From contig BPII01000006.1 of NCBI GenBank assembly GCA_026004035.1, forward strand, positions 14,296-78,295: a DNA stretch of 64,000 nucleotides, written 5' to 3'. The notes under the pieces were generated by a model. The model was not told the origin of the DNA. It searched no databases and saw nothing but the letters and a program-made list of their open reading frames with translations. Positions within the stretch are counted from its first letter, which is position 1; each line of letters opens with the position of its first letter. Positions 2,436-62,452 of this stretch are shown piece after piece. The position numbers and the translations under genes are program-made. The stretch comes from Candidatus Sericytochromatia bacterium (GTDB taxonomy: Bacteria; Cyanobacteriota; Sericytochromatia; UBA7694; JACMQJ01).

Positions 2436-2578
2436 CTTGGGCACTAGGATTGAGTTATGGAAAAAATTACATTAAAAAGGTTATAAATACTAAATTTGAA
2501 GTATATTTAAATATAAATCTTTAAAATGCTTACTATTAAGGTATTTTAAGCTTATCAAAAATAACATTAGCCCAGTGT
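2436..2578 (-). repeat. Copy 1 (reverse orientation) of a ~140-bp interspersed intergenic element; ncRNA or MITE-like
   Basis: Its reverse complement aligns at about 85% identity over ~140 bp with 26362-26503 and 56890-57033. Ends are mutually complementary (GACACTGGG...CCTAGTGCC). It lies between convergent gene ends. Confidence 0.6.
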
Positions 2579-2602
2579 CATTTTGTAAAAAAATAAAAAA
2601 AT

Positions 2603-8324: not shown

Positions 8325-8326
8325 AA

Positions 8327-11535: not shown

Positions 11536-11552
11536 AATACTTATATACAGTA

Positions 11553-11612
11553 TTAAAATTCAAATTCGTATGAAGTTAAACACTACTTCATGTGAATTTT
11601 TTGTGAATTTTA
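11553..11612 (-). promoter_or_regulatory. Candidate activator-dependent promoter for the 11535->2603 operon: two 11-bp direct repeats (AAAATTCACA), then TTTAAC-N17-TTTAAT
   Basis: Minus strand reads TAAAATTCACAAAAAATTCACATGAAGTAGTGTTTAACTTCATACGAATTTGAATTTTAATACTG. The same block (~80% identical, identical -35/-10 spacing) occurs at 19171-19218 upstream of the 153-aa/975-aa DUF11 operon. Confidence 0.5.
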
Positions 11613-14600: not shown

Positions 14601-15659
14601 AAATAAAATATTCTAATTGTAATGTGTTAACTGTAGTGTTAGTTAAAACTTTTATTACTTTCTTATCTACTAAATCTTTTGTCAAAAAATTATCTTTATC
14701 ATCTTTATGTGGATATTCTACATAAGCTTGATTATCTATACTACCTTCTTTTGCATTATCCTTAACTTTAACTTTAAAACTTACTTGTGCTTTTACATCT
14801 TGCTCTAATTTATCCCATAGAACTTTTATGTATTTTGTATCTTTGCTAGGAAAATTATTCCAATTTACATTATCATTGGAAAATAAAATTTTACCTCCTA
14901 AGTTTGCAATAACAGGTGTATCAATTAGTAAAAAAAACATCATCTGGAAGTTTATCTATTAAAGCTAAATCCAAAGCAACCTCATCACCATTATTTTCTA
15001 ATTCAATGGTATATAAAAGAACCTCACCAACTCTAATATTACCTCTAGGATAAACACTTTTATTTGTTACTATACTAACACCTTTTTTCTTTGTATCAAA
15101 AGGTATGCTACTAGTTATGGATATCACTTTTATTTTTAAATTATCTTGTTTTATAATAGTAGGCTGTAATATAGTAATACCTGATATTTTTGGTTCTATT
15201 ATTGTATTGTCAGGTAATCCTATAATATCTTTTATAGCAACTATAAAATTAAAAGTTTGATTTGGTTGTAATTTAGGTGTTGATACTATTTTACTTTCAT
15301 CTTGTTCTATTAATCCATTATTATTTTTATCTTCATATATTTCAAAAATTGTTCCAGCTAGTAAATTTTCAACACTAAGATTATATGTTTCTTCTTTATC
15401 ACCTGTATTAGTTATTTCAGAAGGAAAAAGCCAAGTACTTAAAGGTGTTCCTTCTATGTTATTTTTTTTTGCTTTTATAATAAAATTCCTATTTATAGCA
15501 ATTATAGATGTTTCTTCAATATTTGATAAAACCTTTTGAGTTTTACCTTTATCATCAATATAAGTTCCTTCAGCTTGATTAATTATGGAAAGTGCAAAGG
15601 AATTTTTTTTGAAAAATAAAATTACTATAAATAAGAATAATTGAAATATTTTTTTTCAT
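11610..15659 (-). CDS. Large SLH-domain cell-surface protein (~1340 aa): signal peptide, DUF11, multiple Cna-B/SdrD-B-like domains, two C-terminal SLH domains. Broken into at least 5 frames (ORFs 14921..15127, 13636..14943, 13182..13661, a start-less frame ~12290..13120, 11610..12344)
   Basis: The ATG at 15659 is followed directly by an A8 run (plus strand T8 at 15649-15656). With A7 the product begins MKKIFQLFLFIVILFFKKNSFALS (signal peptide) and reads through into the 15127 ORF. That ORF contains EVLLYTIELENNGDEVALDLALIDKLPDD (DUF11-like). The 435-aa and 159-aa ORFs carry Cna-B-like repeats (GKVVDSQTKKIVSNALVELLDEKGNVIATVNSDANGLYQF; GRVFIDNNNNGIPDEKDTGLENIELY). The open frame 12290-13120 encodes IHGYPDGNFKPERNITRAEATKLIL (SLH) and the 244-aa ORF encodes GYRDKTFKPDNFIPRYELATIVSKAL (SLH). 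Frame junctions coincide with A/T runs (for example A8 at 14930-14937). Confidence 0.6.
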
Positions 15660-15668
15660 AATTTTTCA

Positions 15669-15693
15669 AAAAAAAAGGCTCTTACGAGCCTTG
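15669..15693 (-). terminator. Rho-independent terminator of the 975-aa gene
   Basis: Minus strand reads AAGGCTCGTAAGAGCCTTTTTTTTTG: a 7-bp GC-containing stem, 4-nt loop and T9 tail, 9 nt after the stop at 15702. Confidence 0.7.
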
Positions 15694-15701
15694 ATTTAAT
15701 A

Positions 15702-18657: not shown

Positions 18658-19113
18658 CTATTTTAACTTAACTTTATAACTTATAACCAAAGTTTGATTT
18701 GGTTTTAAAGGTTTATCTATAAGCCATTTTATTTTTTTATACATATCAGGTGTTGCTGGTTTTAAAACTTCTTTATTTCCTTCTCTTACTTTTATTTTTG
18801 GTTCTTTATCAAAAGTTTTACCATCTAGGCTAAATAAAGCTTCATATAAATATTTTTCTTTAATATATGTTGTTCCTTCTGGTATATTTCCTACCGGTTG
18901 TAATTTTCTAGCTTCAGAATCACCAACATTTGTCAAAACAATTCTATATACAAGAGTATCACCAGGCTGAGCTTTATCAGCAGATTCGTAAATTTCTTTA
19001 TTATCTTTCAAAATTATCTTTTGATTTTCTAGCTTTACCTTTACATCAGGCTTAGAATAAGCTGGTAAAGAAAAAGTAAAACTTATTAAAAATAAACTTA
19101 CTAATCTCTTCAT
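18658..19113 (-). CDS. Small secreted single-domain DUF11-like protein (~151 aa), first gene of the operon with the 975-aa protein
   Basis: MKRLVSLFLISFTFSLPAYS is a signal peptide. DTLVYRIVLTNVGDSEARKL is a DUF11-type motif. The ORF track start at 19119 is a TTG; ATG at 19113 is more likely. Confidence 0.5.
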   Translation of the reverse strand: MKRLVSLFLISFTFSLPAYSKPDVKVKLENQKIILKDNKEIYESADKAQPGDTLVYRIVLTNVGDSEARKLQPVGNIPEGTTYIKEKYLYEALFSLDGKTFDKEPKIKVREGNKEVLKPATPDMYKKIKWLIDKPLKPNQTLVISYKVKLK

Positions 19114-19170
19114 AATCAAACAAAAATAATAATAACTAATATGTTATTTTAATACTATTAAATAACAAAT

Positions 19171-19218
19171 TTGTATGAAGTTAAACACTATTTACGTGAA
19201 GATTTTGTGAAGATTTTA
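19171..19218 (-). promoter_or_regulatory. Second copy of the direct-repeat + TTTAAC-N17-TTTAAT promoter block, upstream of the 153-aa/975-aa operon
   Basis: Minus strand reads ATTAAAATCTTCACAAAATCTTCACGTAAATAGTGTTTAACTTCATACAAATTTGTTATTTAAT. It carries a tandem 11-bp repeat AAAATCTTCAC and matches the 11553-11612 block. Confidence 0.5.
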
Positions 19219-23389: not shown

Positions 23390-25140
23390 ATGTCTTTAGA
23401 TTTGAAAATACTTAATGGTAATATTATAGATGGAACAGGAAATAAAGCTTATGTTTCTGATATAGGAATAAAAGATGGTAAGATTGTTGAAATAGGTAAT
23501 TTAAGTAGTAATTTAGCAAAAGAAACTATAAATGCTGATGGGTATATCGTTACCCCTGGTTTTATTGATTTACATACTCATTATGACGGGCAAATATCTT
23601 GGGATTCAGAATTAACACCTTCTTCTATTCATGGAGTCACTACAGTAGTAACAGGTTCTTGTGGAGTTGGATTTGCACCTTGTAAAGAAAAAGATAGAGA
23701 AAAATTAATAACACTAATGGAAGGTGTAGAAGATATACCTGGTTCAGCTTTATCTGAAGGGATAAATTGGAAATGGGAAACTTTTACAGAATATATGAAT
23801 GCCATTGACTCAATACCTCATACAATAGATTTTGCTATGCAAATGACACACGATCCTTTAAGAGTATATGTAATGGGTGATAGAGCTGTTGCTAATCAAA
23901 AAGCTACCGAAGATGATATAAAAAAGATGGCAAAAATATTAAGAGAAGGTTTAATTAGTGGTGCTGTTGGCTTTTCTACAGGTAGAACTGATAATCATAA
24001 AAGCGGAAGAGGTGAAGATACACCAGCAGCTGAAGCTAGTGTAGAAGAATTAACTGGAATTGTGCAAGCTTTTAAAGGTATTAATCATGGAATAATACAA
24101 GCCGTAAGTGATTTTGATATGTTAAAAGGAGATGAATTTTTCGATAAAGAATTTGATGTATTAGAAAAAATGGCTTTAGTAAGTAATAAACCTCTTTCAA
24201 TATCGCTTATGCAAAGGGATCAATCACCTAATCAATGGCAATGGATAATAAAAAGAGCAGAAGAAGCAAATTCAAAAGGTATAAATATAAGATTACAGGT
24301 AGGTGCTAGAGCAATAGGCGTTTTATTAGGATTAGAAACCACTTTTCAACCGTTTATGGGATTTCCATCTTATAAAAAAATAAGTAATTTACCTTTAGAA
24401 GAAAGAGTTAGAATAATGAAAAATCCAGAATTTAAAGAAAAACTGTTAAAAGAAAAAAATGAAAAATTAGCTGGTGATGGTAGCCATATACCACCTTTAG
24501 CAGATATATTGTTATCTCAATTAGATATCATAGGTATGAGAATGTTTAAATTAGGAGAAAAACCTAATTATGAACCTGAGATAAAGGATAGTATAGGATA
24601 TAAAGCTAAACAAAAAGGTGAGAGTATTATAGGTGCATTATATGATGCTTTGCTAGAAGATGAAGGAAAAGCTTTGATATATTTTCCTTTGTATAATTAT
24701 ACAGAATTTAACTTAAACAATTTGTATAAAATGATAAATCATCCTCTTTCTTTACCCGGATTAAGTGATGGTGGAGCACATGTAGGTACTGTTTGTGATG
24801 CTAGTTTTCCTACATTTATGCTTACACATTGGTGTAGAGATAGAAAAGGTGATAAATTTAATTTAGAAAAAATTATAAAAAACAAACTAAAGACTTAGCT
24901 GATTATATAGGCTTTAAGGATAGAGGAATAATAAAAGAAGGATTTAAAGCTGATATTAATATTATAGATTTTGATAATTTAAATCTATTACCACCAAAAT
25001 TAATTTCTGACTTACCAGCAGGTGGCAAAAGACTTATGCAAAAAGCTAATGGTTATATAGCAACAATAGTAAGTGGTGAAGTAATATTAAAAAATAATGT
25101 ATTTACAGGCAAAAAACCAGGTAGATTAGTTAGATTATAA
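23390..25140 (+). CDS. N-acyl-D-amino-acid deacylase (D-aminoacylase, amidohydrolase superfamily); frameshifted near 24867-24882 (two A6 runs)
   Basis: PGFIDLHTHYDGQISWD and SDGGAHVGTVCD motifs. After the stop at 24898 the protein continues in the +2 frame (24862-25140: ...DLADYIGFKDRGIIKEGFKADINIIDF...PAGGKRLMQKANGYIATIVSGEVIL), which is the normal D-aminoacylase C-terminus. Confidence 0.75.
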
Positions 25141-25175
25141 TCATAATAAATACAAAAAGGAATATATTAACACTT

Positions 25176-26354
25176 ATGAAATGTTCTATTGTAATGACAG
25201 GAGGAGTAGTAAAAGGAGCCTTTCAAACAGGTGTTTTAAAATCTTTAGCTGAAAGAAATATTATTCCTAGTGTTGTAGTAGGAGCTTCCGCAGGTGCTCT
25301 TAATGCAGGAATGACTACAAAATTAATTGCTGAAGATAATTTTAAACCTGAAGTTATAGAAGATCAAATGATAAAAGTTTGGTTATATGAAACATCTTTA
25401 ATGAATTTATGGGGTGAAAGTACCAACAAAAATAATACTATAAGAGATATTTTAGGAATAAATACTAACCCTTTTATGATAATAAAAAAATTGTCAAATT
25501 TTGAAATAGAAATCTGGGAAAAACTGAAAAAAATTCTTTCACTTTCTTTTTTATCAGTTTTTAATAATGAATCATTAATGAAAGTTTTAAATAACTATAT
25601 AAAAGCACCTAATGAAATATTAAATGATGTAAAATGTGCAGTATCACTAACAGATTTACTAGGACATACTGAAATCATAAATAATCAAAAAATAAATAAT
25701 TATTCTGAATATGTAACATTTGAATTTAAAAAAGGAGATAATGATAAACTAAGAGAAAAATTTAAACTTTTGAGAGAAGTAATATTAGCATCAGCAAGTT
25801 TTCCAGGAATGTTTCCACCTTTTGAAATAGATATAAAAAAAGATGGTAATAAAAGACTATATATTGATGGTGGAATAACAAAAAATGCACCTTTTGGTAG
25901 AGCTATAAAACTTGATTCTGAAGTAGAATACGTTTTTTTAATATCAACTACTAATATAAGTAAGCCTGTAATAAATAGTATTAGCACTTTTACAGATTTA
26001 ATATCTCAATTATATGAAATAATAATAACAAAAGATATAGCCAATGATTATAGAAAAGTAATTCAGATAAATGAAAAAATAAATATATTATCTAATCTTC
26101 TAGAAAAAGATAAAAATAATATTATTATTGATAATAAAAAAAACAATGATTTATGTAAATTAGCTGGTTTTAAAAATGTTAAAGACTATCTCTCAAAAAG
26201 AATTGTAAAAATAATATTTATAGAACCTGAAAAACCGTTGGAAGGTGATCCTTTTGCTGGAATATACAGAAAAGATAATAGAAAAATACTAGAAAACTAT
26301 ATAAATGAAGGTTATAAAGTTGGTAATAAAGTTTTAGATAATTTTTTTAATTAA
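25176..26354 (+). CDS. Patatin-like phospholipase
   Basis: Oxyanion-hole region VMTGGVVKGAFQTGVL and nucleophile motif GASAGALNA (GxSxG). DGG present near DGGITKNAPF. Confidence 0.75.
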   Translation: MKCSIVMTGGVVKGAFQTGVLKSLAERNIIPSVVVGASAGALNAGMTTKLIAEDNFKPEVIEDQMIKVWLYETSLMNLWGESTNKNNTIRDILGINTNPFMIIKKLSNFEIEIWEKLKKILSLSFLSVFNNESLMKVLNNYIKAPNEILNDVKCAVSLTDLLGHTEIINNQKINNYSEYVTFEFKKGDNDKLREKFKLLREVILASASFPGMFPPFEIDIKKDGNKRLYIDGGITKNAPFGRAIKLDSEVEYVFLISTTNISKPVINSISTFTDLISQLYEIIITKDIANDYRKVIQINEKINILSNLLEKDKNNIIIDNKKNNDLCKLAGFKNVKDYLSKRIVKIIFIEPEKPLEGDPFAGIYRKDNRKILENYINEGYKVGNKVLDNFFN

Positions 26355-26361
26355 CAAAAAT

Positions 26362-26503
26362 TTGTAACTAGGCTAATATTATTTTTGATAAGCTTAAGAT
26401 CCCTTAATAGTAAGCATTCTAAAGATTTATATTTAAATATACTTTAAATTTAGTATTTATAAGCTTTTGAAGATAATTTTTTTATAACTCAATCTCAGTA
26501 CCT
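26362..26503 (+). repeat. Copy 2 of the ~140-bp interspersed element
   Basis: Aligns with 56890-57033 and the reverse complement of 2436-2578 (GGCTAAT...TTTTTGATAAGCTTAA...TAATAGTAAGCATT...ATAACTCAATC...). Lies between convergent gene ends. Confidence 0.6.
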
Positions 26504-26541
26504 AAATTATAGTTATATTTTTTCAACTAGTTTGAAAATAA

Positions 26542-27369
26542 CTACCAATTTTTAAATAAATTAGGTAATAAAATTTCTTGCTTGTTTTTAATAAGCATTT
26601 TTTGTTTATATAAGTAATCTTTATTTGTAAAATTGATTATTTCTATTAAATCATCCTTAAATTTATTTATAAAATTGTTAAATGTATCTTTTTGAAATTT
26701 TGGTTCAATTATGAAGTCATAAGAAAATAGAATGTTATTTTTAATCCAATTCAAGTATGACATAGTTCCAAACCTGTATATATTCATGTATAAGTACATA
26801 GATACTTTAGAAGTCTTTTTTCTTACAAAATTATAATTAGGTATATATATCAATTGACCTTCATTTAAAGTTGATGAGAAAACTGAATTTTCAAAAGTTT
26901 GCAAACCTAGTTTATTATTAGATGGCTTATCAAATATTTCCCAATAAGAATCTCCATATACTTGTATTACCAAAGAATCAAATATTTCTCTATGAATTTC
27001 TTTACCATGATTTTGTCCGTTTTCCACTTCTAGATCCATTTCAATATAACTATTCATTAAATTTGATAGTTCAAAACATAAATCTAGTAATTCTTTATCT
27101 AAAAAATTTATTTTTTTTATAGTCAAATTTGAGTTTTGATTTAATATTTCTATAAACAATGGATGATTTAATACTTCATTTTCTATATTTTTAACCATTC
27201 CTTTATAGTATGTAACAATATTATTTTTATCTAATTCTGAATTATTAATTATTTCATTAAATTTATTCCAATTAATTAAATTAATAATATCTTCATAATT
27301 TACTTTAATTATAAATGGTTTATTTTCATTTATATTTTGTATTAGTTGTTGAATATCAAATACTTTCAT
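26542..27369 (-). CDS. Cupin_4/JmjC-like protein, third paralogue, probably degenerate; last gene of the giant-protein operon
   Basis: EIHREIFDSLVIQVYGDSYWEI and GQLIYIPNYNFVRK align with the HxD and second-His segments of the 407-aa paralogue. H-R-E is kept but Arg replaces the distal His. Confidence 0.4.
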   Translation of the reverse strand: MKVFDIQQLIQNINENKPFIIKVNYEDIINLINWNKFNEIINNSELDKNNIVTYYKGMVKNIENEVLNHPLFIEILNQNSNLTIKKINFLDKELLDLCFELSNLMNSYIEMDLEVENGQNHGKEIHREIFDSLVIQVYGDSYWEIFDKPSNNKLGLQTFENSVFSSTLNEGQLIYIPNYNFVRKKTSKVSMYLYMNIYRFGTMSYLNWIKNNILFSYDFIIEPKFQKDTFNNFINKFKDDLIEIINFTNKDYLYKQKMLIKNKQEILLPNLFKNW

Positions 27370-28579
27370 AATAGATATTAATGATACTATGTTTTAAAAA
27401 ATTATTAATTAACTCCAAAATTAATTCTTTATTTATCTTGGGAAATTTTTCTATTAATTCTTTTATATTAAATTTTTTTTGTTCAAATATATAGTATATC
27501 ATATCAATTAATTCATTTTTGAGAATAACAGATTGATAATTTAAATATATTTCGAAATTAAAATCTTGTTTTGATATACTGAATAAGTTAGTATTTACTT
27601 GAAAGTGTAAATTACAGTTTTCATTTACGGTTTGAGCATATGGTAAATTTATTAAATTACAATTAGGAGTATTTATTATCCAATTTTGATACAATTTTTC
27701 TAAAATAGAACTTATGTTAATATTAGTAAATTTGTTTTTTATATAATTAATGGTACTATTTAGCTCATGTTTAAAATTGTAATTCTTTTTTGTTATCAAT
27801 TTAAAAGAATATAAATCTTGATATAAAGAATTTTTTAAGTATATAAAAAAATCCATAGCACTTATACTTGTAAAACCAATTGTTAAATGTAATGATGGTT
27901 TATAAATTGGTATAACTTTATGAACAAAACCTTTAGGTATATACAAAATATCACCTGGTTCAAGGATATATTCTTTAAAAATACTTTTATTCTTTTCAAA
28001 AAAGTTATCTAATGAGGGTAATTTTTTATTACTTATCCATTTATCCCATTTTTTTTCTTCATATTCCATAAGTTTATATTTAATATGTTTTCTATAATCA
28101 TAATCTGTTGTTATATCAGCTATATACCATTTTTTATTCCCCTCTAAATGAATAATAAAAATATCATAATTATCTATATGTGCTGCAAAAGCATCTTTAT
28201 TTTCATCTGGATAGGAAGAATATAAATTTATCTTAATATCAGTTAAAAATTCTTTTTTTAAAGAATTAACAAATTGAGATAAATCTTTATCTAAATACTC
28301 AATAATGTCTAGTTTTAAAGTAAAACCATTTAACAAAAATTTTCTTAAATTATCTCTGCCTATTATATCTATATCTAATACTTTTTGATCTTTTAATGAT
28401 ACATACAAATTGTATAAAAAATTATTTTCAAGAATATTATTTAATTTGCTCCAATTAAAAATATCTGAAAATTTTTTAGAAGGTTCTTTTTTTATATATA
28501 GATGTTTTCTAGAATAAAAGTTTTTAAAAAAATCTTCTATAGTTACAGGAGAAATAATATCTTTTAAAGTGCTAATCAT
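27356..28579 (-). CDS. Cupin_4/JmjC-domain Fe(II)/2-oxoglutarate oxygenase (ribosomal-oxygenase YcfD/RoxA-like)
   Basis: AAHIDNYDIFIIHLEGNKKWYI (HxD) and LEPGDILYIPKGFVHKV (distal His) match the cupin_4 ROX signature. Confidence 0.6.
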   Translation of the reverse strand: MISTLKDIISPVTIEDFFKNFYSRKHLYIKKEPSKKFSDIFNWSKLNNILENNFLYNLYVSLKDQKVLDIDIIGRDNLRKFLLNGFTLKLDIIEYLDKDLSQFVNSLKKEFLTDIKINLYSSYPDENKDAFAAHIDNYDIFIIHLEGNKKWYIADITTDYDYRKHIKYKLMEYEEKKWDKWISNKKLPSLDNFFEKNKSIFKEYILEPGDILYIPKGFVHKVIPIYKPSLHLTIGFTSISAMDFFIYLKNSLYQDLYSFKLITKKNYNFKHELNSTINYIKNKFTNINISSILEKLYQNWIINTPNCNLINLPYAQTVNENCNLHFQVNTNLFSISKQDFNFEIYLNYQSVILKNELIDMIYYIFEQKKFNIKELIEKFPKINKELILELINNFLKHSIINIYYESI

Positions 28580-37886: not shown

Positions 37887-40800
37887 ATGAAAGATTTATA
37901 CTTTTTAAACAATAATTTATTCAATGAAAATTTCTTATTAGATGAAATTAAAAGATTTCCTGATTTTGATTCAGACATAAGTAATATTTTTGAAGAAATA
38001 AAGCAATTATATAAACCTGACTATTTTATAAAATTAAATGAAGATCAATTAATAGAAGAGTTCATAAAAAAAGTATTAGAAAAGCTAGGATGGGAGTTTT
38101 TAACTCAAGAAAGTCAAACAGTACAAGGTAAGAAAGAAAGACCTGATTTTTCACTTTTTATAGCAAGAGAAGAAAAAGAAAATTATATTTCTAATAAAGA
38201 AAGTCAAAAAATATCCCTTATATGTGAAGCAAAAGCTTTTAATGTTCCACTTGATAATAAAAGAATTAATGACAATCCTCATTTTCAAATAGTAGAATAC
38301 ATGGTTTATCTTAATAAAAAATATGGTTTTTTAACTAATGGTAGATACTGGCGACTTTATAATAAGGAAAAATTTACAGGTAGCAAAATTTTTTACGAAA
38401 TAGATTTACAAGTAATATTTGAAAAAAATGATATAGAAGCTTTTAAATATTTTTATCATTTTTTTAAAAAAGATAGTTTTACAATAAGAAAAAATCAAAC
38501 AACTTTTATAGAGGAAGTAGATAAGAAAAATGAAGAAGTAAAATTAGAAATAGAAGAAAATTTAAGAAATGTAATATATGGTTACCAAGGTAATAAATCA
38601 ATATTTGAGCTAATAGGTAAATGTATATATGAAAGATATCCACATGAAGATTTAGAAGTAATATATGAAAACTCATTATATTTTCTTTTTAGACTTTTAT
38701 TTGTAATTTATTTTGAAGATAAGTTTATTGATGTAATAAAAGATCACATATATTACAAAAAATATTCTTTGAATAAAATTTTAAATGATATAAAATCTTT
38801 AAATAATTTTGATGATTTTGATTTATATAAAGATTTAAAACAAGTATTTAAAACATTAGATGAAGGTGATAAAGATATAGACATACCATTATTTGATGGT
38901 GGTCTTTTTGCTTCAGATAAAGCAAAATTATTATATGGTAATAAAGTAATAGATAATGGTAGCTTAAAAGAAATTTTTGAAACTCTTTTTTACTACAAAG
39001 GTAATAAAAGAGATTTTAAAACTTTATCTATAACACATTTAGGTTCTATTTATGAAGGTCTTTTATCTTTTAGATTTGAAAAAGCTGAGGAAAATATTTT
39101 TTATATAGAATATATAGAAAAATTAAAAAAAGAAGAAAAATTCATAAGTGGTTACTTTGATAATTATGATTATAATAAAATAATTTCTAACAAAAATATT
39201 GAAGTTAAAAATTTAGAAAAATACGAGAAAGGTCAAATACACTTAAAAACTTTATCAAATTCAAGAAAAACAACAGCAAGTTACTATACTCCAAAAGATT
39301 TAGTTAATTTTATGGTAAAAGAAGCTATAGATAAAGCTTTGGAAAATTATAAACCATTAGAAATAAAAATAATAGATAATGCCTGTGGAAGTGGTAATTT
39401 TTTAGTAAATTGTTTGAATTATCTTACACTAAAAGTTTTTGAAAATATAGACAATTACAGTGATATAAAAGAATTAATTTCATTAGAAAATGAAAAAATA
39501 AAATCAACTTTAGATAGTTTTAATTATAAATATAAATATGAAATTGATGAATTTTCAATACTAAAAAGAATAATTTTAAAAAATACAATATATGGAGTAG
39601 ATATTAATTATTTTGCAGTAGAAATAGCAAAACTTGCTTTATGGATAGATACATTTATATTTGGCACACCATTAAGTTTTATAGAACATCATATAAAAAC
39701 AGGTAATTCTCTTATAGGAACAACTATCAATGAATTTAAAGATTTTTGGGAAAATAAGAATAAAGGAGGATTTAACTTTTATGATAGTTTTCTTAAAAAA
39801 TTTGACAATTTAAATGAAGCTTTTCAAAAATTAAGTAACTTAAAAGATACTACAAGAGATGAAATAGAAAAATCAAAAGAAATTTATAGTAAAGAAATAG
39901 AACCTAAATTAAAAGAATTAAACAATTTTTTAAACTTACTTACTTATTTCAAGTTTAAAAAAATAGAAAAAGATAAAGATAAAATAAACAAAATTGATTT
40001 TAATACTAATCTTGAAAATATTCTAAATAATAAAGAAATAGCAACAGATATATATCATTATTCAAAAAAATATTTATTTTTTAACTATGAAATACAATTT
40101 CCTGAAGTATTTACTAGAGAAGACAAAGGTTTTAACATAGTAATAGGTAATCCTCCTTGGGATAAAACAAAGTTTGATGACAAAGATTTTTTCTCTCAAT
40201 ATAAAACAAATTATAGAACTCTATCAAATAATCAAAAAGAAGAATTTAAAATAAATACTTTGACAAAAGATTATATAAAGAAAAAATATGAATATGAAAA
40301 AGATTTTATAGAAAAATCAAATGAATATTACAAAGAAAATTATCCGTATAATAAAGGATCAGGAGATGGAAATTTATTCAGATTTTTCTTAGAAAGAAAT
40401 CTTTCTCTAATATCAGAAAAAGGAAATATTACATATCTTATTCCTTCTGCAATAATGCTTGAAGAAGGTTCTACTGAATTAAGAAAATATATTTTTGAAA
40501 ACTTTAATTTAAATTTTTTTTATAGTTTTGAGAATAGAAAAAAATTATTTAAAGATATAGCTTCAGATTTTGAATTTTCAATATTACAAATAGATAAAAC
40601 AAGAAGAACAGAAAAAATAAAAGTAAAATTTATGATTATAGATTCAAATGATTTATATAATAACGATTATATTGACTATACTATTGATAATTTGAGATTA
40701 TTATCTCCTGATTATTTATCTTTACATAGGTTTATATCTCAAAAAGATATTTCATTAATACATAATTTTTATAGTAAATATAAAATACTTGAAAATAATT

Positions 40801-41684
40801 ACTTAGATTTTAGAAGAGAAATTGATATGACAAATGATAAAGATTTATTTTATGAAAAGAAAGAATATCAGGAAGGAATGATAAAATTATATGAAGGAAA
40901 AATGATTTGGCAATATGACTCTAAGTTTTCTAATCCACAGTATTTTCTAAAAATAGATGAAGTAAAAGAAAGACTGAAATCAAAAGAAATTTATAGATTA
41001 TCTCAAGATGTAAGTATTGCTGAAGAAGAGCTAAAAAACAGATTACAAATTAATTCATTAGAAAATTTTATTTCTTATGATTACAACTATTATAGATTAG
41101 GCTTTAGGGCTATTTCAAATAGTTCAATGGAAAGAAGTTTAATAGCTTCATTAATACCTAAAAATATTTTTGCTGGAAATAGTTTATTTTTATCTATACC
41201 TAAAAAATATTACTTTGATGATAATAGTAGAAACATTTTTACTAAAGAAATAGATATTGAAGTTTTACTTTTTATAAATTCACTATTTAATTCTATAGTT
41301 ATTGATTATATTTTAAGACTAATGATTAAATACAATGTAAATAAAACATATATATATAGATTACCTTTACCACAGCCAAGTAAAGAGGAAATTTATAGTA
41401 ATGAAATATACAAAAAGTTAATGTTTAATTCTTTAAAATTAACTTTACACTATAATTACAATGATTTTGAAGAATTAGCACAAAAGTTTAACATTAATAA
41501 AGAAGATATTCCAATAACAGAAAAACAAGTTGATTTATTAAAAATAGAAAACGATATTTTGGTAGCAAAACTATATGATTTGTCTTCAGAAGATTTGAAA
41601 CATATTTGTTCATACTTTAAAGTCCTATTGAAAAACAAACCTGAATATATAAGTAGTTTATTGAGTGAATATGACATCAAATAA
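37887..41684 (+). CDS. Type IIG/IIL single-polypeptide restriction-modification enzyme (N-terminal PD-ExK nuclease, gamma-class N6-adenine methyltransferase, C-terminal TRD)
   Basis: ERPDFSLF...x20...LICEAKAF is a PD-(D/E)xK motif. TASYYTPKDLV, then IDNACGSGNFL (motif I) and VIGNPPWDK (motif IV, NPPW). About 650 aa downstream is available for a target-recognition domain. No separate S or R subunit genes nearby. Confidence 0.65.
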   Translation: MKDLYFLNNNLFNENFLLDEIKRFPDFDSDISNIFEEIKQLYKPDYFIKLNEDQLIEEFIKKVLEKLGWEFLTQESQTVQGKKERPDFSLFIAREEKENYISNKESQKISLICEAKAFNVPLDNKRINDNPHFQIVEYMVYLNKKYGFLTNGRYWRLYNKEKFTGSKIFYEIDLQVIFEKNDIEAFKYFYHFFKKDSFTIRKNQTTFIEEVDKKNEEVKLEIEENLRNVIYGYQGNKSIFELIGKCIYERYPHEDLEVIYENSLYFLFRLLFVIYFEDKFIDVIKDHIYYKKYSLNKILNDIKSLNNFDDFDLYKDLKQVFKTLDEGDKDIDIPLFDGGLFASDKAKLLYGNKVIDNGSLKEIFETLFYYKGNKRDFKTLSITHLGSIYEGLLSFRFEKAEENIFYIEYIEKLKKEEKFISGYFDNYDYNKIISNKNIEVKNLEKYEKGQIHLKTLSNSRKTTASYYTPKDLVNFMVKEAIDKALENYKPLEIKIIDNACGSGNFLVNCLNYLTLKVFENIDNYSDIKELISLENEKIKSTLDSFNYKYKYEIDEFSILKRIILKNTIYGVDINYFAVEIAKLALWIDTFIFGTPLSFIEHHIKTGNSLIGTTINEFKDFWENKNKGGFNFYDSFLKKFDNLNEAFQKLSNLKDTTRDEIEKSKEIYSKEIEPKLKELNNFLNLLTYFKFKKIEKDKDKINKIDFNTNLENILNNKEIATDIYHYSKKYLFFNYEIQFPEVFTREDKGFNIVIGNPPWDKTKFDDKDFFSQYKTNYRTLSNNQKEEFKINTLTKDYIKKKYEYEKDFIEKSNEYYKENYPYNKGSGDGNLFRFFLERNLSLISEKGNITYLIPSAIMLEEGSTELRKYIFENFNLNFFYSFENRKKLFKDIASDFEFSILQIDKTRRTEKIKVKFMIIDSNDLYNNDYIDYTIDNLRLLSPDYLSLHRFISQKDISLIHNFYSKYKILENNYLDFRREIDMTNDKDLFYEKKEYQEGMIKLYEGKMIWQYDSKFSNPQYFLKIDEVKERLKSKEIYRLSQDVSIAEEELKNRLQINSLENFISYDYNYYRLGFRAISNSSMERSLIASLIPKNIFAGNSLFLSIPKKYYFDDNSRNIFTKEIDIEVLLFINSLFNSIVIDYILRLMIKYNVNKTYIYRLPLPQPSKEEIYSNEIYKKLMFNSLKLTLHYNYNDFEELAQKFNINKEDIPITEKQVDLLKIENDILVAKLYDLSSEDLKHICSYFKVLLKNKPEYISSLLSEYDIK

Positions 41685-46893: not shown

Positions 46894-49800
46894 ATGCATA
46901 GTAAAGAAATTACTTACAAATTACTAGAACATGATAATAATATAAATTCAATAGCTTTAAGTTATGATAATAAACTTATTGCTACTGGCGGATATGATAA
47001 TCAAATAAAAATTTGGAATTTTAACGATAATATAGATTTTTACAAAAAATTAGAAGGGCATCAAGATAATGTAAATTCAATATTGTTTTCATATGATAAT
47101 AAATATTTGTATTCATGCTCATCTGATAAAACTATAAAAATTTGGGATATAAAAAATTTCAAAGAATTAAAAACTTTTTATTCTCATACGGACGAAGTAA
47201 ATAGTATTTCTATAAGTCCTGATGGATTTACTTTGTCAAGCTGTAGCTCTGATAAAACAATAAAATTATGGGATTTAAACTCACAAAAAGAAATAACAAC
47301 ATTAATTGGACATCATGATAAAGTTAATTATACTCATTTTAGTAATAATAATAAGTATTTGCTTTCTTGTAGTGAAGATAATACTATAAAAATTTGGGAT
47401 TTAGAAAATTACAGAATAATAAAAATTATTCAATGCCATAGTAAAGGGGTATTACAGGCAAAATTTAATGTTGATTCATCCTTAATATTATCTTGTAGTA
47501 AAGATTTAACTATAAAATTGATAAACTTTGAAGGTTTGGAATTAAAAACTTTTAAAGGACATACAAAGGATATTTGCTCTGTTTTCTTTTTTAATAATGA
47601 ATATAATATAATATCAGCTTCAAAAGATAAAACAATAAAAATATGGGATATAGAAACTCAAAATGAAATAAAAACAATAAAAGCACATAATAAAGAAATT
47701 AATTCAATATTTATTTCAGATGATTATCGTAATATATTATGTTGTGGTAATGATAGATATATAAGTTTAATAAATCTAAAATTAGATGAAACTAAAAAAG
47801 AAATAATCAAAGAATTTTCTAAAACTAGCGATAATGACAACTTTCAGGAAGTTTTAAAAATAGAAAATTTTAGAGTAATAAAAAATTATTCTGATATTGA
47901 ATCACTTTCATATAGTTCTGATGGTAGAAATATAGCTGCTGCTTTAAGTGATTTTAGTATAAAAATATGGGATATAAATAATTTAAATCATAAAATAATA
48001 TCAGGTCACAAAGACACTATAAATCATATATCATTTAGCCCAGATGGTAATTATATAGCATCAGCTAGTTATGACAAAACAATAAGAATTTGGGATATTG
48101 AAAATAAGAGTGAATTAAAAGTTTTTAAAGGACATACCGAATCTGTAAAATTTATAACATATAGTCCCGATGGAAAATATTTAGCATCTTGTGCTGATGA
48201 TAAAACAATAAGACTTTGGTCAATATATTCGGGAGCACAAATTAGAATATTCAAAGGACATATAAATTGGATTTATCATTTAAGTTATAGTCCTGATGGA
48301 AAATATTTAGCATCTGCTAGTGCTGATGGAACTATCAAGATATGGGATACTGAATTAGGTAGTGAAGTTATTACTTTAAAAGGACATATAGATTGGGTTA
48401 ATTATGTATCATTTAATAATACAGGTAATATATTAATTTCTGCTAGTTCTGATAATACGATAAAGATTTGGAATTTAATAAATGGTAAGGAAATAAACAC
48501 TCTATCTGGACATAATGATAGTGTAATATTTACATCATATACAAGTGATAATAAATATATAATTTCTGCAAGTTTAGATAAAACTCTTAAAATTTGGGAT
48601 TCAGAAACATACAGCTTAATAGAAACTTTGAATATAACTGATACAGATAATTATAAAATAACTTTTAATCAAGTAAATAAATGTTTAGCTACTACTAATG
48701 ATGATAATAGTATTTTACTATGGAGATTATCAAATGTAAAAGTTCCAAAAGAAGAAAAAAATGAAGTAATCAAAAATAAAGTTGAAAAACTTGAAATAAA
48801 AAAGGAAGTAAAAGAAGATAAAGAAGAGATAAAAGATACTATTAAAGCTTTATCAATAAATATAAAAGAAATATCTAGCTTTAAACAAATAGGTTATATA
48901 AGTTATTTAACTTTTTCAAAAAATTCTAAATATGTTATAAGTGGAAGCTTTGATAGAAGTATAAAAATATTTGACATAAATGGTAATCTAATAAAAACTT
49001 TGGATGGTCATAATGGAGCAGTTTTATGTATTTGCAATACTAATGATGCAAATATAATAGTTTCTTCTAGTTCAGATAAAACTATAAGAATATGGGATAT
49101 AGAAAAAGGAAAACAAATAAATATATTAACAGGACATTCTGATACTATAAAAACTTTAGCGGTTAATAGCAATAATATATTAGCTTCAGGTGGAATGGAT
49201 AAGACAATAAAACTTTGGGATTTAGAAAAAACAAAATGTATAAAAACAATAAGTGCTCATGATGATTATATAAGTAATATAATTTTTTCTAAAGATGATA
49301 AATTGCTATTATCTTCAAGTTTTGATAAAAGCATAAAAATATGGAATACAGAAAATTATAGTATAGAAAAAGTTCTGTTCTCTTCAGATGCAAACATTAA
49401 TTCAATTGATATAAGTTTAGATAATAAATATGTTGTAGCTGCTTGTTCAGACAGAAAAATAAGAATATGGGAAATAGAAACAGGAAATTTAGTTAAAGTT
49501 CTAAAAGAACATCTAGGTAATGTTAATTCTGTAAAATATACAAAAGACTATAAATATTTAGTTTCTTGCAGTGTTGATAAAACTATAAAAATATGGGATA
49601 TAGAAGTTGGTATATCTGTAAATACATTAACAGGACACTTTGATGAAATATATAATGTAGATTGTTCTGAAAATAACTTGATAGTTTCTTGTACAGCTCA
49701 AGATACCATAACAGTATGGGAGTTTTTTCAAGGTAAATTTAAGCAATTTGAAAAAATGGACAATAAAGAAGAAAAAAAAGATTATAAAGAAGTTATTAAT

Positions 49801-50151
49801 ATAATAGACGAATATTACCCTATTGCATCTAAAATTGCTAAAAATGTGTATAATTTGCAATTAAAAAATCAAGAAACAGAAGATGAAGTATATAAGCCTA
49901 ATGTAGAATTATCTGATGATGAAAAGTTTTTATGGAATATTCTTATTGACTATGAAGAAATAGATGAAGATATTTTAAACATGATTTGTGAAGAAAAAAA
50001 TTTAAAAATAAATGTCAAAGATTTAATGAGTAAATTAGTAAATAAAATAAATGCTTTTTCAAAAGGCTTAATAGAAGTAATGAAAACTGATGACGGAAAT
50101 AGAATATATACAATAGTTGATTTAAAGATAGCAAAAGAAATTAAAGTTTAG
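46894..50151 (+). CDS. WD40-repeat protein, 1085 aa, two beta-propellers separated by a Lys/Glu-rich linker
   Basis: More than 20 repeats ending ...DKTIKIWD / WD. Central segment KVPKEEKNEVIKNKVEKLEIKKEVKEDKEEIKDT is charged and helical. No signal peptide. Confidence 0.7.
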   Translation: MHSKEITYKLLEHDNNINSIALSYDNKLIATGGYDNQIKIWNFNDNIDFYKKLEGHQDNVNSILFSYDNKYLYSCSSDKTIKIWDIKNFKELKTFYSHTDEVNSISISPDGFTLSSCSSDKTIKLWDLNSQKEITTLIGHHDKVNYTHFSNNNKYLLSCSEDNTIKIWDLENYRIIKIIQCHSKGVLQAKFNVDSSLILSCSKDLTIKLINFEGLELKTFKGHTKDICSVFFFNNEYNIISASKDKTIKIWDIETQNEIKTIKAHNKEINSIFISDDYRNILCCGNDRYISLINLKLDETKKEIIKEFSKTSDNDNFQEVLKIENFRVIKNYSDIESLSYSSDGRNIAAALSDFSIKIWDINNLNHKIISGHKDTINHISFSPDGNYIASASYDKTIRIWDIENKSELKVFKGHTESVKFITYSPDGKYLASCADDKTIRLWSIYSGAQIRIFKGHINWIYHLSYSPDGKYLASASADGTIKIWDTELGSEVITLKGHIDWVNYVSFNNTGNILISASSDNTIKIWNLINGKEINTLSGHNDSVIFTSYTSDNKYIISASLDKTLKIWDSETYSLIETLNITDTDNYKITFNQVNKCLATTNDDNSILLWRLSNVKVPKEEKNEVIKNKVEKLEIKKEVKEDKEEIKDTIKALSINIKEISSFKQIGYISYLTFSKNSKYVISGSFDRSIKIFDINGNLIKTLDGHNGAVLCICNTNDANIIVSSSSDKTIRIWDIEKGKQINILTGHSDTIKTLAVNSNNILASGGMDKTIKLWDLEKTKCIKTISAHDDYISNIIFSKDDKLLLSSSFDKSIKIWNTENYSIEKVLFSSDANINSIDISLDNKYVVAACSDRKIRIWEIETGNLVKVLKEHLGNVNSVKYTKDYKYLVSCSVDKTIKIWDIEVGISVNTLTGHFDEIYNVDCSENNLIVSCTAQDTITVWEFFQGKFKQFEKMDNKEEKKDYKEVINIIDEYYPIASKIAKNVYNLQLKNQETEDEVYKPNVELSDDEKFLWNILIDYEEIDEDILNMICEEKNLKINVKDLMSKLVNKINAFSKGLIEVMKTDDGNRIYTIVDLKIAKEIKV

Positions 50152-55401: not shown

Positions 55402-56616
55402 ATGTTAAAAAAATATTTGCTTACAAGTATAATATTATTAACAGTAATATTAATTAGTCCATCCTCAATTTCTAAAGAAATAAATATAAGAGTTGGAATA
55501 CAGACAAATATTCAATCTACAATTGTAAGTACTTCTCTAAATGGAACTATTTTTCATTTTTATAATAATAAAATGAATAAAGTTTTTGATATTTTACCTC
55601 AAGAACCTTGTTATATAGAAAATAAAAAAGGATTATTACAAATAATTTCCAATGATAAAAAACTTATAATATCATCAGGTAAAGTAATAATAAAGAATAC
55701 TGAAGATAAGGGTAAATATGTACCTTTAGTATATGCTGGTAATAAATGGTATAGAGGAGAATTAGAAATATTTGTTTCTTTAAGCAATAAAAATAATATT
55801 ACTGTTGTAAATAATTTACCATTAGAAGAATATTTATATGGAGTTGTTCCTTCTGAAATGCCATCTTCATGGCCAATAGAAGCACTTAAAACTCAAGCTA
55901 TTGCAGCAAGAACTTATGCATTGACTCATTTAGGTCAATTTGCAAAGGAAGGTTTTGATGTTATGCCTACAGTTATAAGTCAAGTTTATGGTGGTGCTGA
56001 AAGTGAAACACCCATTACAAATAAAGCAGTAGATGAAACAATAGGAAAAGTAATAACATATAATAATAAACTTATAAATGCTTATTACTCATCTTCTTCA
56101 GGTGGTATAACAGAAGATGGAATTAATGTATGGGGAGAAAATTTACCTTATTTAAAATCTGTTATAGATTTTGATGAAGATTCACCTAAGTATTCTTGGT
56201 ATAAAATTATTAATAATACTGATTTACAGAATATTTTAAAAAATTCTTTTAATAGAGATATAGGGAAAATACTTAATATTAGTATAGTAGAGACAACATC
56301 ATCAGGTAGAGCTAATAAATTACTATTTGAAGGCACTAAATCAAATATAGAAATAGATGCAAAAAAGTTTAGATTAGCATCAAAACTTAATAGTACTCTC
56401 TTTAAAGTTGAAAAAATGGATTTAGGTACAAGTTTTTACGATAATTATAGTATTCCAAATTTATTTATATTTGTTGGTAAAGGTTGGGGACATGGTACAG
56501 GAATGTCTCAATGGGGTGCAAGAGCAATGGCTAAAAATGGTAAAACTCATGTAGAAATAATTAAACATTATTATCAAGGTACTGAAATAAGCAATATAAA
56601 TAGTATAATAAATTAG
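55402..56616 (+). CDS. SpoIID/LytB-domain protein (amidase enhancer family)
   Basis: Signal peptide. ...GVVPSEMPSSWPIEALKTQAIAARTYAL and GWGHGTGMSQWGA are SpoIID-family conserved blocks. Confidence 0.65.
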   Translation: MLKKYLLTSIILLTVILISPSSISKEINIRVGIQTNIQSTIVSTSLNGTIFHFYNNKMNKVFDILPQEPCYIENKKGLLQIISNDKKLIISSGKVIIKNTEDKGKYVPLVYAGNKWYRGELEIFVSLSNKNNITVVNNLPLEEYLYGVVPSEMPSSWPIEALKTQAIAARTYALTHLGQFAKEGFDVMPTVISQVYGGAESETPITNKAVDETIGKVITYNNKLINAYYSSSSGGITEDGINVWGENLPYLKSVIDFDEDSPKYSWYKIINNTDLQNILKNSFNRDIGKILNISIVETTSSGRANKLLFEGTKSNIEIDAKKFRLASKLNSTLFKVEKMDLGTSFYDNYSIPNLFIFVGKGWGHGTGMSQWGARAMAKNGKTHVEIIKHYYQGTEISNINSIIN

Positions 56617-56889
56617 TCTTTTCAATTATTCATAATCTTGAGATATTGAATTAACAGGATCATAATTGTAAATATCGTTTTCATATTTATCTGAAAATCT
56701 ACTTTGGTCTATCTTATACTCTGTGCATATAATTTCTTTGGATTCTTCTTTTTGTAATTACTCAAGCTAGTTGACACTAATATATGTTAATTTTTATTTA
56801 CTTTTGTTGAATACAGAGAAAATTTTTTTGAAAATATAATTAAATTACATGAGTATTGTTTACCAAATAAATAAAGAAAAAATTAAAAA

Positions 56890-57033
56890 AGAGTAGGTGC
56901 TGGGCTAATTTTATTTTTTGATAAGCTTAAAATCATTTAATAGTAAGCATTTTAAAGATTTATATTAAAATATACCTTAAATTCAGTGTTTATAAGCTTT
57001 TTAAGGTAATTTTTTCTATAACTCAATCCCAGT
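56890..57033 (+). repeat. Copy 3 of the ~140-bp interspersed element
   Basis: GGTGCTGGGCTAAT...AACTCAATCCCAGTGCC. The 9-nt ends can pair when G-U wobble is allowed. Lies between the SpoIID-like gene and the MarR gene. Confidence 0.6.
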
Positions 57034-57080
57034 GCCAGGTTTATATAATAAAATGTTATAATATATCTATATTTTTTTAG

Positions 57081-57533
57081 TTGCTTTTAATGATAGAGAA
57101 TGTAAATTTGGAAGATATACAAAAATTAAGTAAGTTAGTTGATAGTATAGGAGCTTGGTTATATAAAACTGAAATAGATGAAATAAAGAAAAGTAATATT
57201 TCAGAGCTTACTTATAGTGAATTACATACTTTAAAAGCTATCGAAGAAATTGAAAATGCAAAGCTTTATGAAATAGCTGATAAATTAGGTGTTTCAAGTG
57301 CTTCTATGTCTGTTACAATAGATAATTTAGAAAAAAAGTCTTTTGTTATAAGAGATAAAGACAAAAATGATAGAAGAGCTATAATAATAAGACTTACAGA
57401 AAAAGGTATTAATGCAAATAGAGAACATGAGAAATTACATTGTAAAATGGCTGAAGCTATATTAAGTAAATTAGATAAGGATCAACAAAAAATAATAGTT
57501 AAAGCTTTTGAAAAGCTACTTTCTAATGAATAA
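57081..57533 (+). CDS. MarR-family transcriptional regulator
   Basis: Winged-helix region ELTYSELHTLKAIEEIENAKLYEIADKLGVSSASMSVTIDNLEKKSFV. Confidence 0.7.
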   Translation: MLLMIENVNLEDIQKLSKLVDSIGAWLYKTEIDEIKKSNISELTYSELHTLKAIEEIENAKLYEIADKLGVSSASMSVTIDNLEKKSFVIRDKDKNDRRAIIIRLTEKGINANREHEKLHCKMAEAILSKLDKDQQKIIVKAFEKLLSNE

Positions 57534-60807: not shown

Positions 60808-61531
60808 TAACTCTTCCTCATTGAAGATATTAACTATATTTTATATTGAAATTTTATTTTTTAGTATAATGATTATTAACTTTTCTTTATATTATTATTA
60901 CTTTAACAACGAAATCATAAAATTAACATAAAGTAATATTTTAGAGAGTAATTAGTTATAATATAATTTGTATTTTTATTTTGGATAACCTCGACAATGA
61001 AACTATAAATTTAGTATAAAATAGTATTTATAATATTTAGAAAATAGTATTAAATTGAAAAAATACAAGATATTTTATTATTTTTCAAGTAATTTTATAG
61101 GTTATAATCTACTTCCTGTAATTCCTTTATAAATTATACTAATTGTTTTATTAATATTAACTTATTATCAAGTAAAGAAAATATTTTTAGCTGGTTACTA
61201 ATTTCGTTGTTAAAGTTAAAGAGATATACCAATTTAATACTTCAATTATTAATGTTATTGAGAGTTATCAAGAAAGTTGTGTTTATACATATTTGAAATC
61301 AATTTTATACATATTTGAAATCAATCTATAAAATGTTTTTGGGATTTTCATACACAAGATTTAAGACAACTCTCTTTATTTCACTCAAAATGCAACACTA
61401 TTATTAACTATTATTAACTATTTCACTCAAAATGTAACATTTTATTTTGCGAAAATGCAAAACTTATTGCTATTTAATATTTCTTAATATTTATATTTTC
61501 TGAAAATCTTGATATACAATGATTATAGGAT

Positions 61532-62452
61532 TTGTTAATAATTTTTTCTAGGTATTATATGAAGGATTATAAAATAATAAAATATAAAAATATATGGTTT
61601 ACAATATCTGCACTTCTTTTGATACCGGGTATAATAGCATTATTTTTAGGTTGGCTTAAGCCTGGTTTAGATTTTATTGGTGGTACATTAATAGAGATAA
61701 AAACAGAGAAAAATTATAATGCTCAAGAAATAAAGAATATACTTACAAAAATAGACAAAGATTTATATGCTGATGCTGTCGTCCAACCTTCTGATTTAAT
61801 ATTGAGTATAAAGGCTAAATCAATAGATAATAATCAACAAATGAAATTATTTGAAGCTCTAAAAAAAGAAATAGGAAATTTTGAACAACAAAGAGTTGAA
61901 ATAGTAGGTCCTACAATAGGTAAAGAACTTTTTAGAAATTCTATGACAGGATTTATTTTAGTAATGTTAGGAATAATAGCTTACTTATCATTTAGATTTA
62001 GATATGACTATGCTATATGTGCAATAATAGCACTAGCTCATGATGTTTTATTTTTAGTTGGAACTTTTGCAATATTAGGAAAACTTTATGGAATTGAAAT
62101 TGATAGTCTATTTGTTACCGCTGCTTTAACAGTAGCTGGTTTTTCTGTTCATGACACAATAGTTGTATATGATAGAATAAGAGAAAATTTAAAGAAATCA
62201 AAAAGAGGTACGCCAATAGAAGAGGTAGCTAATGTCAGTTTAAACCAAACTATGGCAAGAAGTATAAATACCTCTTTAACATTAGTTTTAACATTAGTTT
62301 TCTTATTTTTATTTGGTGGTGAATCTATAAAAAGTTTTACACTAGCAATGTTAATAGGTGTTATAGCCGGGACTTATTCAAGTATATGTATAGCAAGTCC
62401 TTTGATAGTTGTTTGGAGAAATTTTGAAAAATCTAAGAAAGCTTCTGCTTGA
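61532..62452 (+). CDS. secF: Protein translocase subunit SecF (stand-alone, no secD adjacent)
   Basis: IWFTISALLLIPGIIALFLGWLKPGLDFIGGTLIEI and the C-terminal 6-TM block with GFSVHDTIVVYDRIRENL are SecF signatures. Start probably at Met 61559. Confidence 0.75.
   Translation: MLIIFSRYYMKDYKIIKYKNIWFTISALLLIPGIIALFLGWLKPGLDFIGGTLIEIKTEKNYNAQEIKNILTKIDKDLYADAVVQPSDLILSIKAKSIDNNQQMKLFEALKKEIGNFEQQRVEIVGPTIGKELFRNSMTGFILVMLGIIAYLSFRFRYDYAICAIIALAHDVLFLVGTFAILGKLYGIEIDSLFVTAALTVAGFSVHDTIVVYDRIRENLKKSKRGTPIEEVANVSLNQTMARSINTSLTLVLTLVFLFLFGGESIKSFTLAMLIGVIAGTYSSICIASPLIVVWRNFEKSKKASA

Follow-up and report, generated by a model that had tools for sequence, protein, structure and literature searches.

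A dispersed 140-bp repeat in a Sericytochromatia genome is probably a decaying MITE-like element

Introduction

Sericytochromatia are a poorly sampled, non-photosynthetic sister lineage of Cyanobacteria. In a 64,000-nt stretch of one Sericytochromatia genome (the window), a short sequence without an open reading frame recurs between genes, and its two ends are complementary to each other. Does this sequence encode a family of structured small RNAs, or is it a small piece of mobile DNA? A first-pass annotation of the window had put forward both possibilities. Here we examine the copies, their genomic setting, their distribution and their divergence. The results favour a lineage-specific MITE-like repeat over a structured RNA, a non-mobile DNA site or the remains of a larger element.

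Results

A repeat of 140 bp in three copies

Three dispersed copies of about 140 bp had been reported, and both blastn and an nhmmer profile bore this out. With the flagged copy (c3) as query, blastn found the other two in the window through 134-nt alignments that are 89.6% and 88.8% identical (E values of 7e-47 and 4e-44), the best match after these having an E value of 0.007. A profile of the three copies matched the window only three times (E of 5e-38 to 7e-41), with nothing further at E ≤ 10. The three places had been given correctly, with each end 2–6 nt off; the copies are:

56896..57036, + strand, 141 nt: copy c3 (flagged)
26364..26502, + strand, 139 nt: copy c2
2440..2579, − strand, 140 nt: copy c1

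Pairwise identities among c1, c2 and c3 are 87.8, 88.6 and 88.5%, slightly higher than the earlier estimate of about 85%. When the copies are aligned with their flanks, the edges of likeness are the inverted-repeat termini. The copies have a G+C content of 21.6–24.8% (around 23%), compared with 25.4% for the window. All six frames of every copy contain stops and the copies differ by two 1-nt indels, confirming the absence of an ORF. Two AAGCTT palindromes had been described in the core, the second of which reads AACCTT in c1. Only the 9 terminal bases and a short segment centred on AAGCTT are symmetric in the element.

We rejected three further apparent similarities. The element contains a 22-nt direct repeat, 71 nt apart, suggestive of a dimer of half-units, but the likeness stops outside the AAGCTT-centred block. 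The 9-mer ATTTTTTTA precedes both c1 and c2 by 23 nt, as if the element were longer; this reading fails because at c2 these nine bases close the patatin coding sequence and are nearly kept, with one synonymous T/C difference, in two relatives that lack the element (contigs L005 and L006). Two segments weakly like part of the element (61022–61051 and 61514–61550) represent chance A+T-rich matching.

The termini form a degenerate inverted repeat

Each copy is bounded by a 9-nt, G+C-rich inverted repeat with a consensus of about GGCACTGGG...CCCAGTGCC. The arms are:

56896..56904, + strand: 5′ arm of c3, GGTGCTGGG
57028..57036, + strand: 3′ arm of c3, CCCAGTGCC
26364–26372, + strand: 5′ arm of c2, GTAACTAGG
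26494–26502, + strand: 3′ arm of c2, CTCAGTACC
2579–2571, − strand: 5′ arm of c1, GACACTGGG
2448–2440, − strand: 3′ arm of c1, CCTAGTGCC

Across the arms, 85% of cells pair, compared with 29–52% when the partner is slid by 1–3 columns, and the inverted repeat is therefore real. The complementarity reported for the 9-nt ends is strongest in c3 (9/9 positions, two of them G.U) and c1 (8/9); c2, whose ends had gone unquoted, pairs at only 6/9, its helix being broken at the other three.

The first-pass annotation had taken different bases that still pair as a hint of selection on an RNA helix. Column by column, all of the changes in the terminal helix are one-sided: four leave G.T, and four or more break the pair (for instance A.C, A.A or T.C). 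Among the imperfect terminal pairs on the sense strand, G.T outnumbers A.C by 4 to 2, a difference that is not significant. The apparent wobbles are the expected decay of G+C-rich ends in a 25% G+C genome.

All copies are intergenic in ordinary chromosomal DNA

All three copies lie between genes, in the following spacers:

2428 to 2603, convergent: AcrB-family stop (2428) and DUF11 surface-protein stop (2603), almost filled by c1
26354 to 26542, convergent: patatin-like stop (26354) and JmjC-like stop (26542), almost filled by c2
56616 to 57090, both genes on the + strand: SpoIID stop (56616) and MarR-family start (57090), a spacer of 473 nt holding c3

The convergent gene 3′ ends described earlier do flank c1 (2440) and c2 (26364), but c3 sits between two + strand genes. 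A same-strand stop codon precedes c1 by 23 nt and c2 by 9 nt, whereas c3 lies 280 nt past the SpoIID stop and ends 53 nt before the MarR-family start, the latter taken from a 147-aa gene call of the source run. Copies c2 and c3 share an orientation, are 30.5 kb apart and bracket 30.4 kb; overall, the copies are spaced 24–30 kb apart and both orientations are present.

The window is ordinary chromosome, with genes for aconitase, phosphoglycerate kinase, FabD, SecF, RNase III, ribulose-phosphate epimerase and large DUF11/SLH surface proteins. A Pfam scan, which covered all but four of the window ORFs of at least 120 aa, showed no transposase or integrase domain.

Several other features of the window are recorded here in their own right. 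Amid the core genes, 37887–41684 encodes a 1265-aa protein with Eco57I/MmeI-type methyltransferase domains (a type IIG restriction-modification enzyme). Two − strand clusters (2603–10747 and 13182–18629) carry genes for very large surface proteins of 1617, 806 and 975 aa, whose domains are DUF11, carboxypeptidase-regulatory-like and SLH, and a 300-nt duplication, 70% identical, lies inside the surface-protein cluster (5511–5810 and 6024–6323). A 38-nt direct repeat, 87% identical (TATTAAA..CAAATT.GTATGAAGTTAAACACTA.TT), occupies two intergenic spacers (11551–11588 and 19156–19193), each time just upstream of a − strand gene without a Pfam match (10825–11535 and 18658–19119), and could be a promoter, leader or regulatory motif common to both. 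The 1085-aa ORF at 46894–50151 consists of at least eight diverged units of about 126 nt ending ...ATAAAAATTTGG, a pattern that looks like WD40 repeats, and a source-run short-read contig breaks inside it, at 49238. Finally, the divergent FabD-like and SecF genes are separated by an unusually long spacer of about 725 nt (60808–61531) with local duplications: catatttgaaatcaat twice near 61290–61325, atttcactcaaaatg.aaca twice near 61379–61440, and attattaact twice. Two source-run short-read contigs end in this spacer, at 60969 and 61524, and it has no Rfam match.

The repeat was found only in the source organism

We searched for the element using motifs, profiles and translations. The 22-nt core motif TTAATAGTAAGCATTNTAAAGA, invariant in all copies, was not matched exactly in any of 185,579 species-representative genomes or in JGI metagenomes. 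The species-representative set is without the source genome and its genus, the best match of a neighbouring protein there being 44% identical (in another Sericytochromatia MAG); the JGI scan should include two samples that hold sister organisms (about 80–83% protein identity). A second core motif, GATAAGCTTAAN{4,10}TTAATAGTAAGC, had no match in viral contigs. Plasmids gave none by blastn in distant mode, and phages gave only short A+T-rich chance matches. Six-frame translations of the three copies retrieved nothing at E ≤ 10 from a collection of 5.8 billion proteins.

Sister organisms, identified through SpoIID and patatin proteins that are 80–84% identical, were present in ERR7850097, ERR14653894, SRR11728137, JGI 3300002925 and JGI 3300036768. 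Using nhmmer, we found no element in about 70 kb of sister loci, including one more distant Sericytochromatia locus, and no further copy in 1.46 Mb of fetched sequence overall. The 8.6 kb to the right of the window, covered by source-run contigs, likewise contained no further copy, so that the copies seen directly are three only, in 72.6 kb. The 12% divergence between copies is far below that between these species, and we infer from this that the family most likely arose after the species split.

Copies c2 and c3 lie at breaks in synteny

Sister contigs were also compared at the sites of the copies. In four of them, a convergent gene comes directly after patatin: three have 3 nt between the two genes, and in the fourth there is a short overlap. 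Homology between the window and the sister contigs reaches about 26349, and c2 begins at 26364, within 14 nt of the last homologous base. No element occurs downstream of patatin or SpoIID in the sister contigs, but the downstream genes there also differ, as they do on both sides of SpoIID. The c2 and c3 sites are thus synteny breakpoints rather than clean presence/absence alleles and, because synteny with relatives breaks exactly at these two copies, insertion and rearrangement are inseparable. Only one or two genes neighbouring the markers used remain syntenic, the genomes being rearranged almost everywhere. AcrB relatives in the JGI metagenomes, at 42% identity at best, are too distant for an empty-site comparison at c1.

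Two differences in gene content adjoin the patatin gene. Directly downstream of c2, two adjacent, overlapping genes encode JmjC/cupin-domain proteins of 275 and 407 aa (26542–28579). This pair is missing at the equivalent place in the four sister contigs, where a gene for a 1202-aa PKD/Kelch protein adjoins patatin; two of the four contigs end within that gene. Upstream of patatin, an Amidohydro_3 gene (23390–25176) looks interrupted, as its ORF stops at 24898 after 502 aa. Its orthologues in the four sister contigs are 583–593 aa, and the 80% identical stretch goes on through 24906–25139 (seen via a spurious antisense ORF). The interruption is either a frameshift or pseudogene or an assembly error, and source-run contig L093 starts there, at 24877.

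No target-site duplication was consistent across the three copies at boundary offsets of −20..+3 and −3..+20 and lengths of 2–10. The flanking matches seen were trivial (TT, AA or ATT only) and 7–20 nt away.

Short-read contigs of the source run (DRR290133) provided a different view of the sites. All four contig ends that enter c2 or c3 lie inside the element:

c3: contig L001 ends at column 48; contig L094 starts at column 113
c2: contig L093 ends at column 87; contig L095 starts at column 91

Each terminal 30-mer of these contigs is unique within the window, and the copies have their longest exact runs in common (30, 25 and 16 nt) elsewhere. Contig ends of this kind point to a branching of the assembly graph through further copies, or through strain variants, that lie outside the window; strain polymorphism could also account for them.

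Divergence among the copies looks neutral

In total, 25 alignment columns are variable: 7 of 18 in the termini and 18 of 123 in the interior, with 7 of 62 in the 5′ half and 11 of 61 in the 3′ half. A hand tally of variable columns, polarised by majority rule, gave 9 changes from G/C to A/T and 9 from A/T to G/C, on roughly 33 G/C and 108 A/T sites. Per site, change is therefore about three times more frequent at G/C sites, and the two directions balance. This pattern looks neutral, as would be expected of sequence evolving at compositional equilibrium in a 25% G+C genome, and such an equilibrium would explain both why the G+C-rich ends are the most variable part and why they carry C-to-T 'wobbles'. 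The near-equal pairwise distances fit a star-like history, as expected from a single amplification burst. As the termini are the least conserved part, the copies may no longer be mobilisable.

The divergence and synteny data bear on the possibility that the repeat is a non-mobile DNA site, bound by a host protein or used in recombination, which was copied by recombination or gene conversion and promotes rearrangements. Such a site would accommodate the better conserved 5′ half, the lack of a target-site duplication and of a transposase, and the position of c2 and c3 exactly where gene order departs from sister genomes. However, in genomes rearranged almost everywhere, a coincidence with breakpoints is weak evidence, the substitutions look neutral rather than constrained, and discrete units with inverted termini are the signature of transposition. 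We therefore regard a non-mobile site as unlikely.

Tests of a structured RNA are negative

The first-pass annotation had proposed a structured sRNA family. As a structured RNA, the element would be either an independently transcribed RNA of about 140 nt or a cis-acting 3′-UTR module, closed by a helix between its ends and under selection at the RNA level. The pairable ends of c3 and c1, the (non-significant) excess of G.T over A.C on the sense strand and the positions of c1 and c2 shortly beyond a same-strand stop codon are in line with this, although orientation between convergent genes is uninformative. The dedicated tests (Rfam, folding, covariation, terminator and promoter) all went against it.

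Rfam returned no match at the gathering score across the whole window, for 6S or any other sRNA, and none at a meaningful E value: sub-threshold hits near the copies had E values of 0.12–9 at best and did not cover the element. No tRNA or tmRNA was found in the window. Relative to dinucleotide shuffles, fold z-scores for the three copies were −1.9, +0.7 and −0.8 on the sense strand and −1.6, +0.3 and −1.8 on the antisense strand. The predicted folds are thus no more stable than shuffled sequence, and the minimum-free-energy structures are unlike among copies. An internal hairpin of c3 (CCTTAAA/TTTAAGG) does not survive the substitutions that c1 and c2 carry.

Covariation was likewise absent in the three copies. 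RNAalifold found a compensatory change in 0 of 42 predicted pairs, with a covariation term that was a penalty (+2.11 kcal/mol), and in the terminal helix 0 of 9 pairs had changed on both sides, its covariation score being equalled by 384 of 500 shuffles; with three sequences, both analyses have low power.

We found no terminator-like site, and sigma-70-like matches are as frequent in the element as in shuffles. One weak match (TTAATA-18-TATATT, 9/12) is conserved:

56937..56966, + strand: sigma-70-like match in c3
26404–26433, + strand: sigma-70-like match in c2
2539–2510, − strand: sigma-70-like match in c1

Its presence is at the chance rate for A+T-rich DNA and we claim no function for it; a transcript that began at this internal site would not include the 5′ arm. 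Alignment of the three copies with their flanks shows no conserved sequence before that arm that could be a promoter. Collectively, the RNA reading is without positive support, the power of the covariation analysis being low at n = 3, and we consider a structured RNA improbable. In the most developed version of this reading, the element would be a Sericytochromatia-specific RNA module that ends the transcript of the upstream gene or is transcribed from an unrecognised promoter. Closed by its G+C-rich ends, it would stabilise the mRNA or direct its processing, or would act in trans as an sRNA, and the G.U-tolerant changes would reflect RNA-level selection on one strand; this we hold to be more doubtful still.

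Remnants of larger elements and other known classes

The copies could also be relics of a larger element, either fused left and right IS ends that internal deletion left behind at each site or attachment-site scars of an integrated element. The inverted-repeat termini do resemble IS ends, and c2 and c3 form direct repeats around a 30.4-kb segment. This segment, however, carries phosphoglycerate kinase, ribulose-phosphate 3-epimerase, RNase III and SpoIID, and no integrase. Moreover, three independent deletions would not produce one and the same junction; it was therefore the short unit that was copied, and the relic idea collapses into the MITE reading. As a separate explanation, it is very unlikely.

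Remaining classes were rejected on their defining features, diversity-generating (DGR) and attL/attR readings among them. Integron attC/VCR-type sites require RYYYAAC...GTTRRRY ends and form arrays of a single orientation beside an integrase, whereas the element ends in G..ACTGGG / CCCAGTGCC, and its copies lie tens of kilobases apart in both orientations with no integrase. A retron msr-msd would need an adjacent reverse transcriptase, which is absent: the neighbours are AcrB, DUF11, patatin, JmjC, SpoIID and MarR. A type I toxin-antitoxin system (Ibs/Sib-like) would have a conserved small hydrophobic ORF with an antisense RNA; here no frame is open and conserved across the copies, and the longest shared peptide-like stretch is hydrophilic, has no ribosome-binding site and has stops that differ.

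Discussion

Our analyses indicate that the element is probably a lineage-specific, non-autonomous, decaying MITE-like dispersed repeat. We favour a MITE because the copies are discrete, with sharp edges and inverted termini, and because of their size, low G+C content, intergenic location and lack of coding capacity. Equal distances between copies, neutral substitutions, absence from the sampled sister DNA and from the collections searched with the two core motifs, and short-read contigs that break inside copies argue in the same direction, and RNA-level constraint was not seen. The MITE alternative of the first-pass annotation is thereby favoured on anatomy and not proven, as only three copies were seen, with no target-site duplication, partner transposase or clean empty site, and no IS could be matched to the ends.

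The terminal inverted repeats would have been recognised by a transposase with its gene elsewhere in the genome, which spread the unit, in a single burst, to A+T-rich DNA between genes, for the most part shortly beyond 3′ ends. Neutral drift would since have taken each copy to about 6% from the master sequence. Movement of the unit, a transposase acting in trans and additional copies are inferred in this account. If transcription of the upstream gene runs on into a copy, the two ends of that copy can pair, which might have an incidental effect on the stability or processing of the mRNA 3′ end, as has been reported for ERIC and Correia elements (PMC10969869). Any such influence would be a side effect, with nothing in these data to indicate a selected function.

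Confirmation would make this the first family of small dispersed repeats to be described in Sericytochromatia. Its significance is modest: it opens no new question and has no bearing on a long-standing one. In practical terms, the element fragments short-read assemblies, as the source-run contigs entering c2 or c3 stop inside it, and it marks places where gene order departs from sister species. Copy c3, 53 nt upstream of the MarR-family regulator gene, could affect the expression of that gene.

The MITE class, as named here for the element, includes ERIC, Correia, RUP and bcr1. Prokaryotic MITEs are shorter than 500 bp, with TIRs of 4–30 bp, are A+T-rich, and lie in intergenic DNA or 3′ UTRs, and their flanking direct repeats fade in older copies (PMC10969869). 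The element resembles them in length, TIR range, A+T richness, intergenic location and lack of a transposase. It differs in that no target-site duplication, cognate IS or presence/absence polymorphism is demonstrated here, and in that its predicted transcripts are not unusually stable.

ERIC (or IRU) elements of Enterobacteriaceae are imperfect palindromes of 124–127 bp, intergenic and often just downstream of genes, with no dedicated transposase known and a lineage-dependent copy number (PMC10969869). The likeness to them, which is one of description and not of sequence, covers length, intergenic location downstream of genes and ends that can pair if co-transcribed. ERIC elements belong to another phylum, however, and are mostly palindromic, whereas the symmetry here involves only the 9 terminal bases and the AAGCTT segment.

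With the Correia (NEMIS) elements of Neisseria, the repeat shares a unit of about 100–200 bp, terminal inverted repeats, a position beside genes and a weak internal sigma-70-like motif. Correia elements have 26-bp TIRs, a TA target duplication and an IHF site. By contrast, the TIR here is 9 bp, there is no TA or other duplication, and no match to the IHF consensus was seen in the element by eye.

Closer in lineage are the cyanobacterial MITEs, such as Nezha of Nostocales and the ISSoc2-derived elements of Synechococcus. Those are tied to identified IS partners, unlike the repeat described here, and the likeness is one of kind and not of direct sequence comparison; they are nonetheless the same kind of element, within Cyanobacteriota sensu lato.
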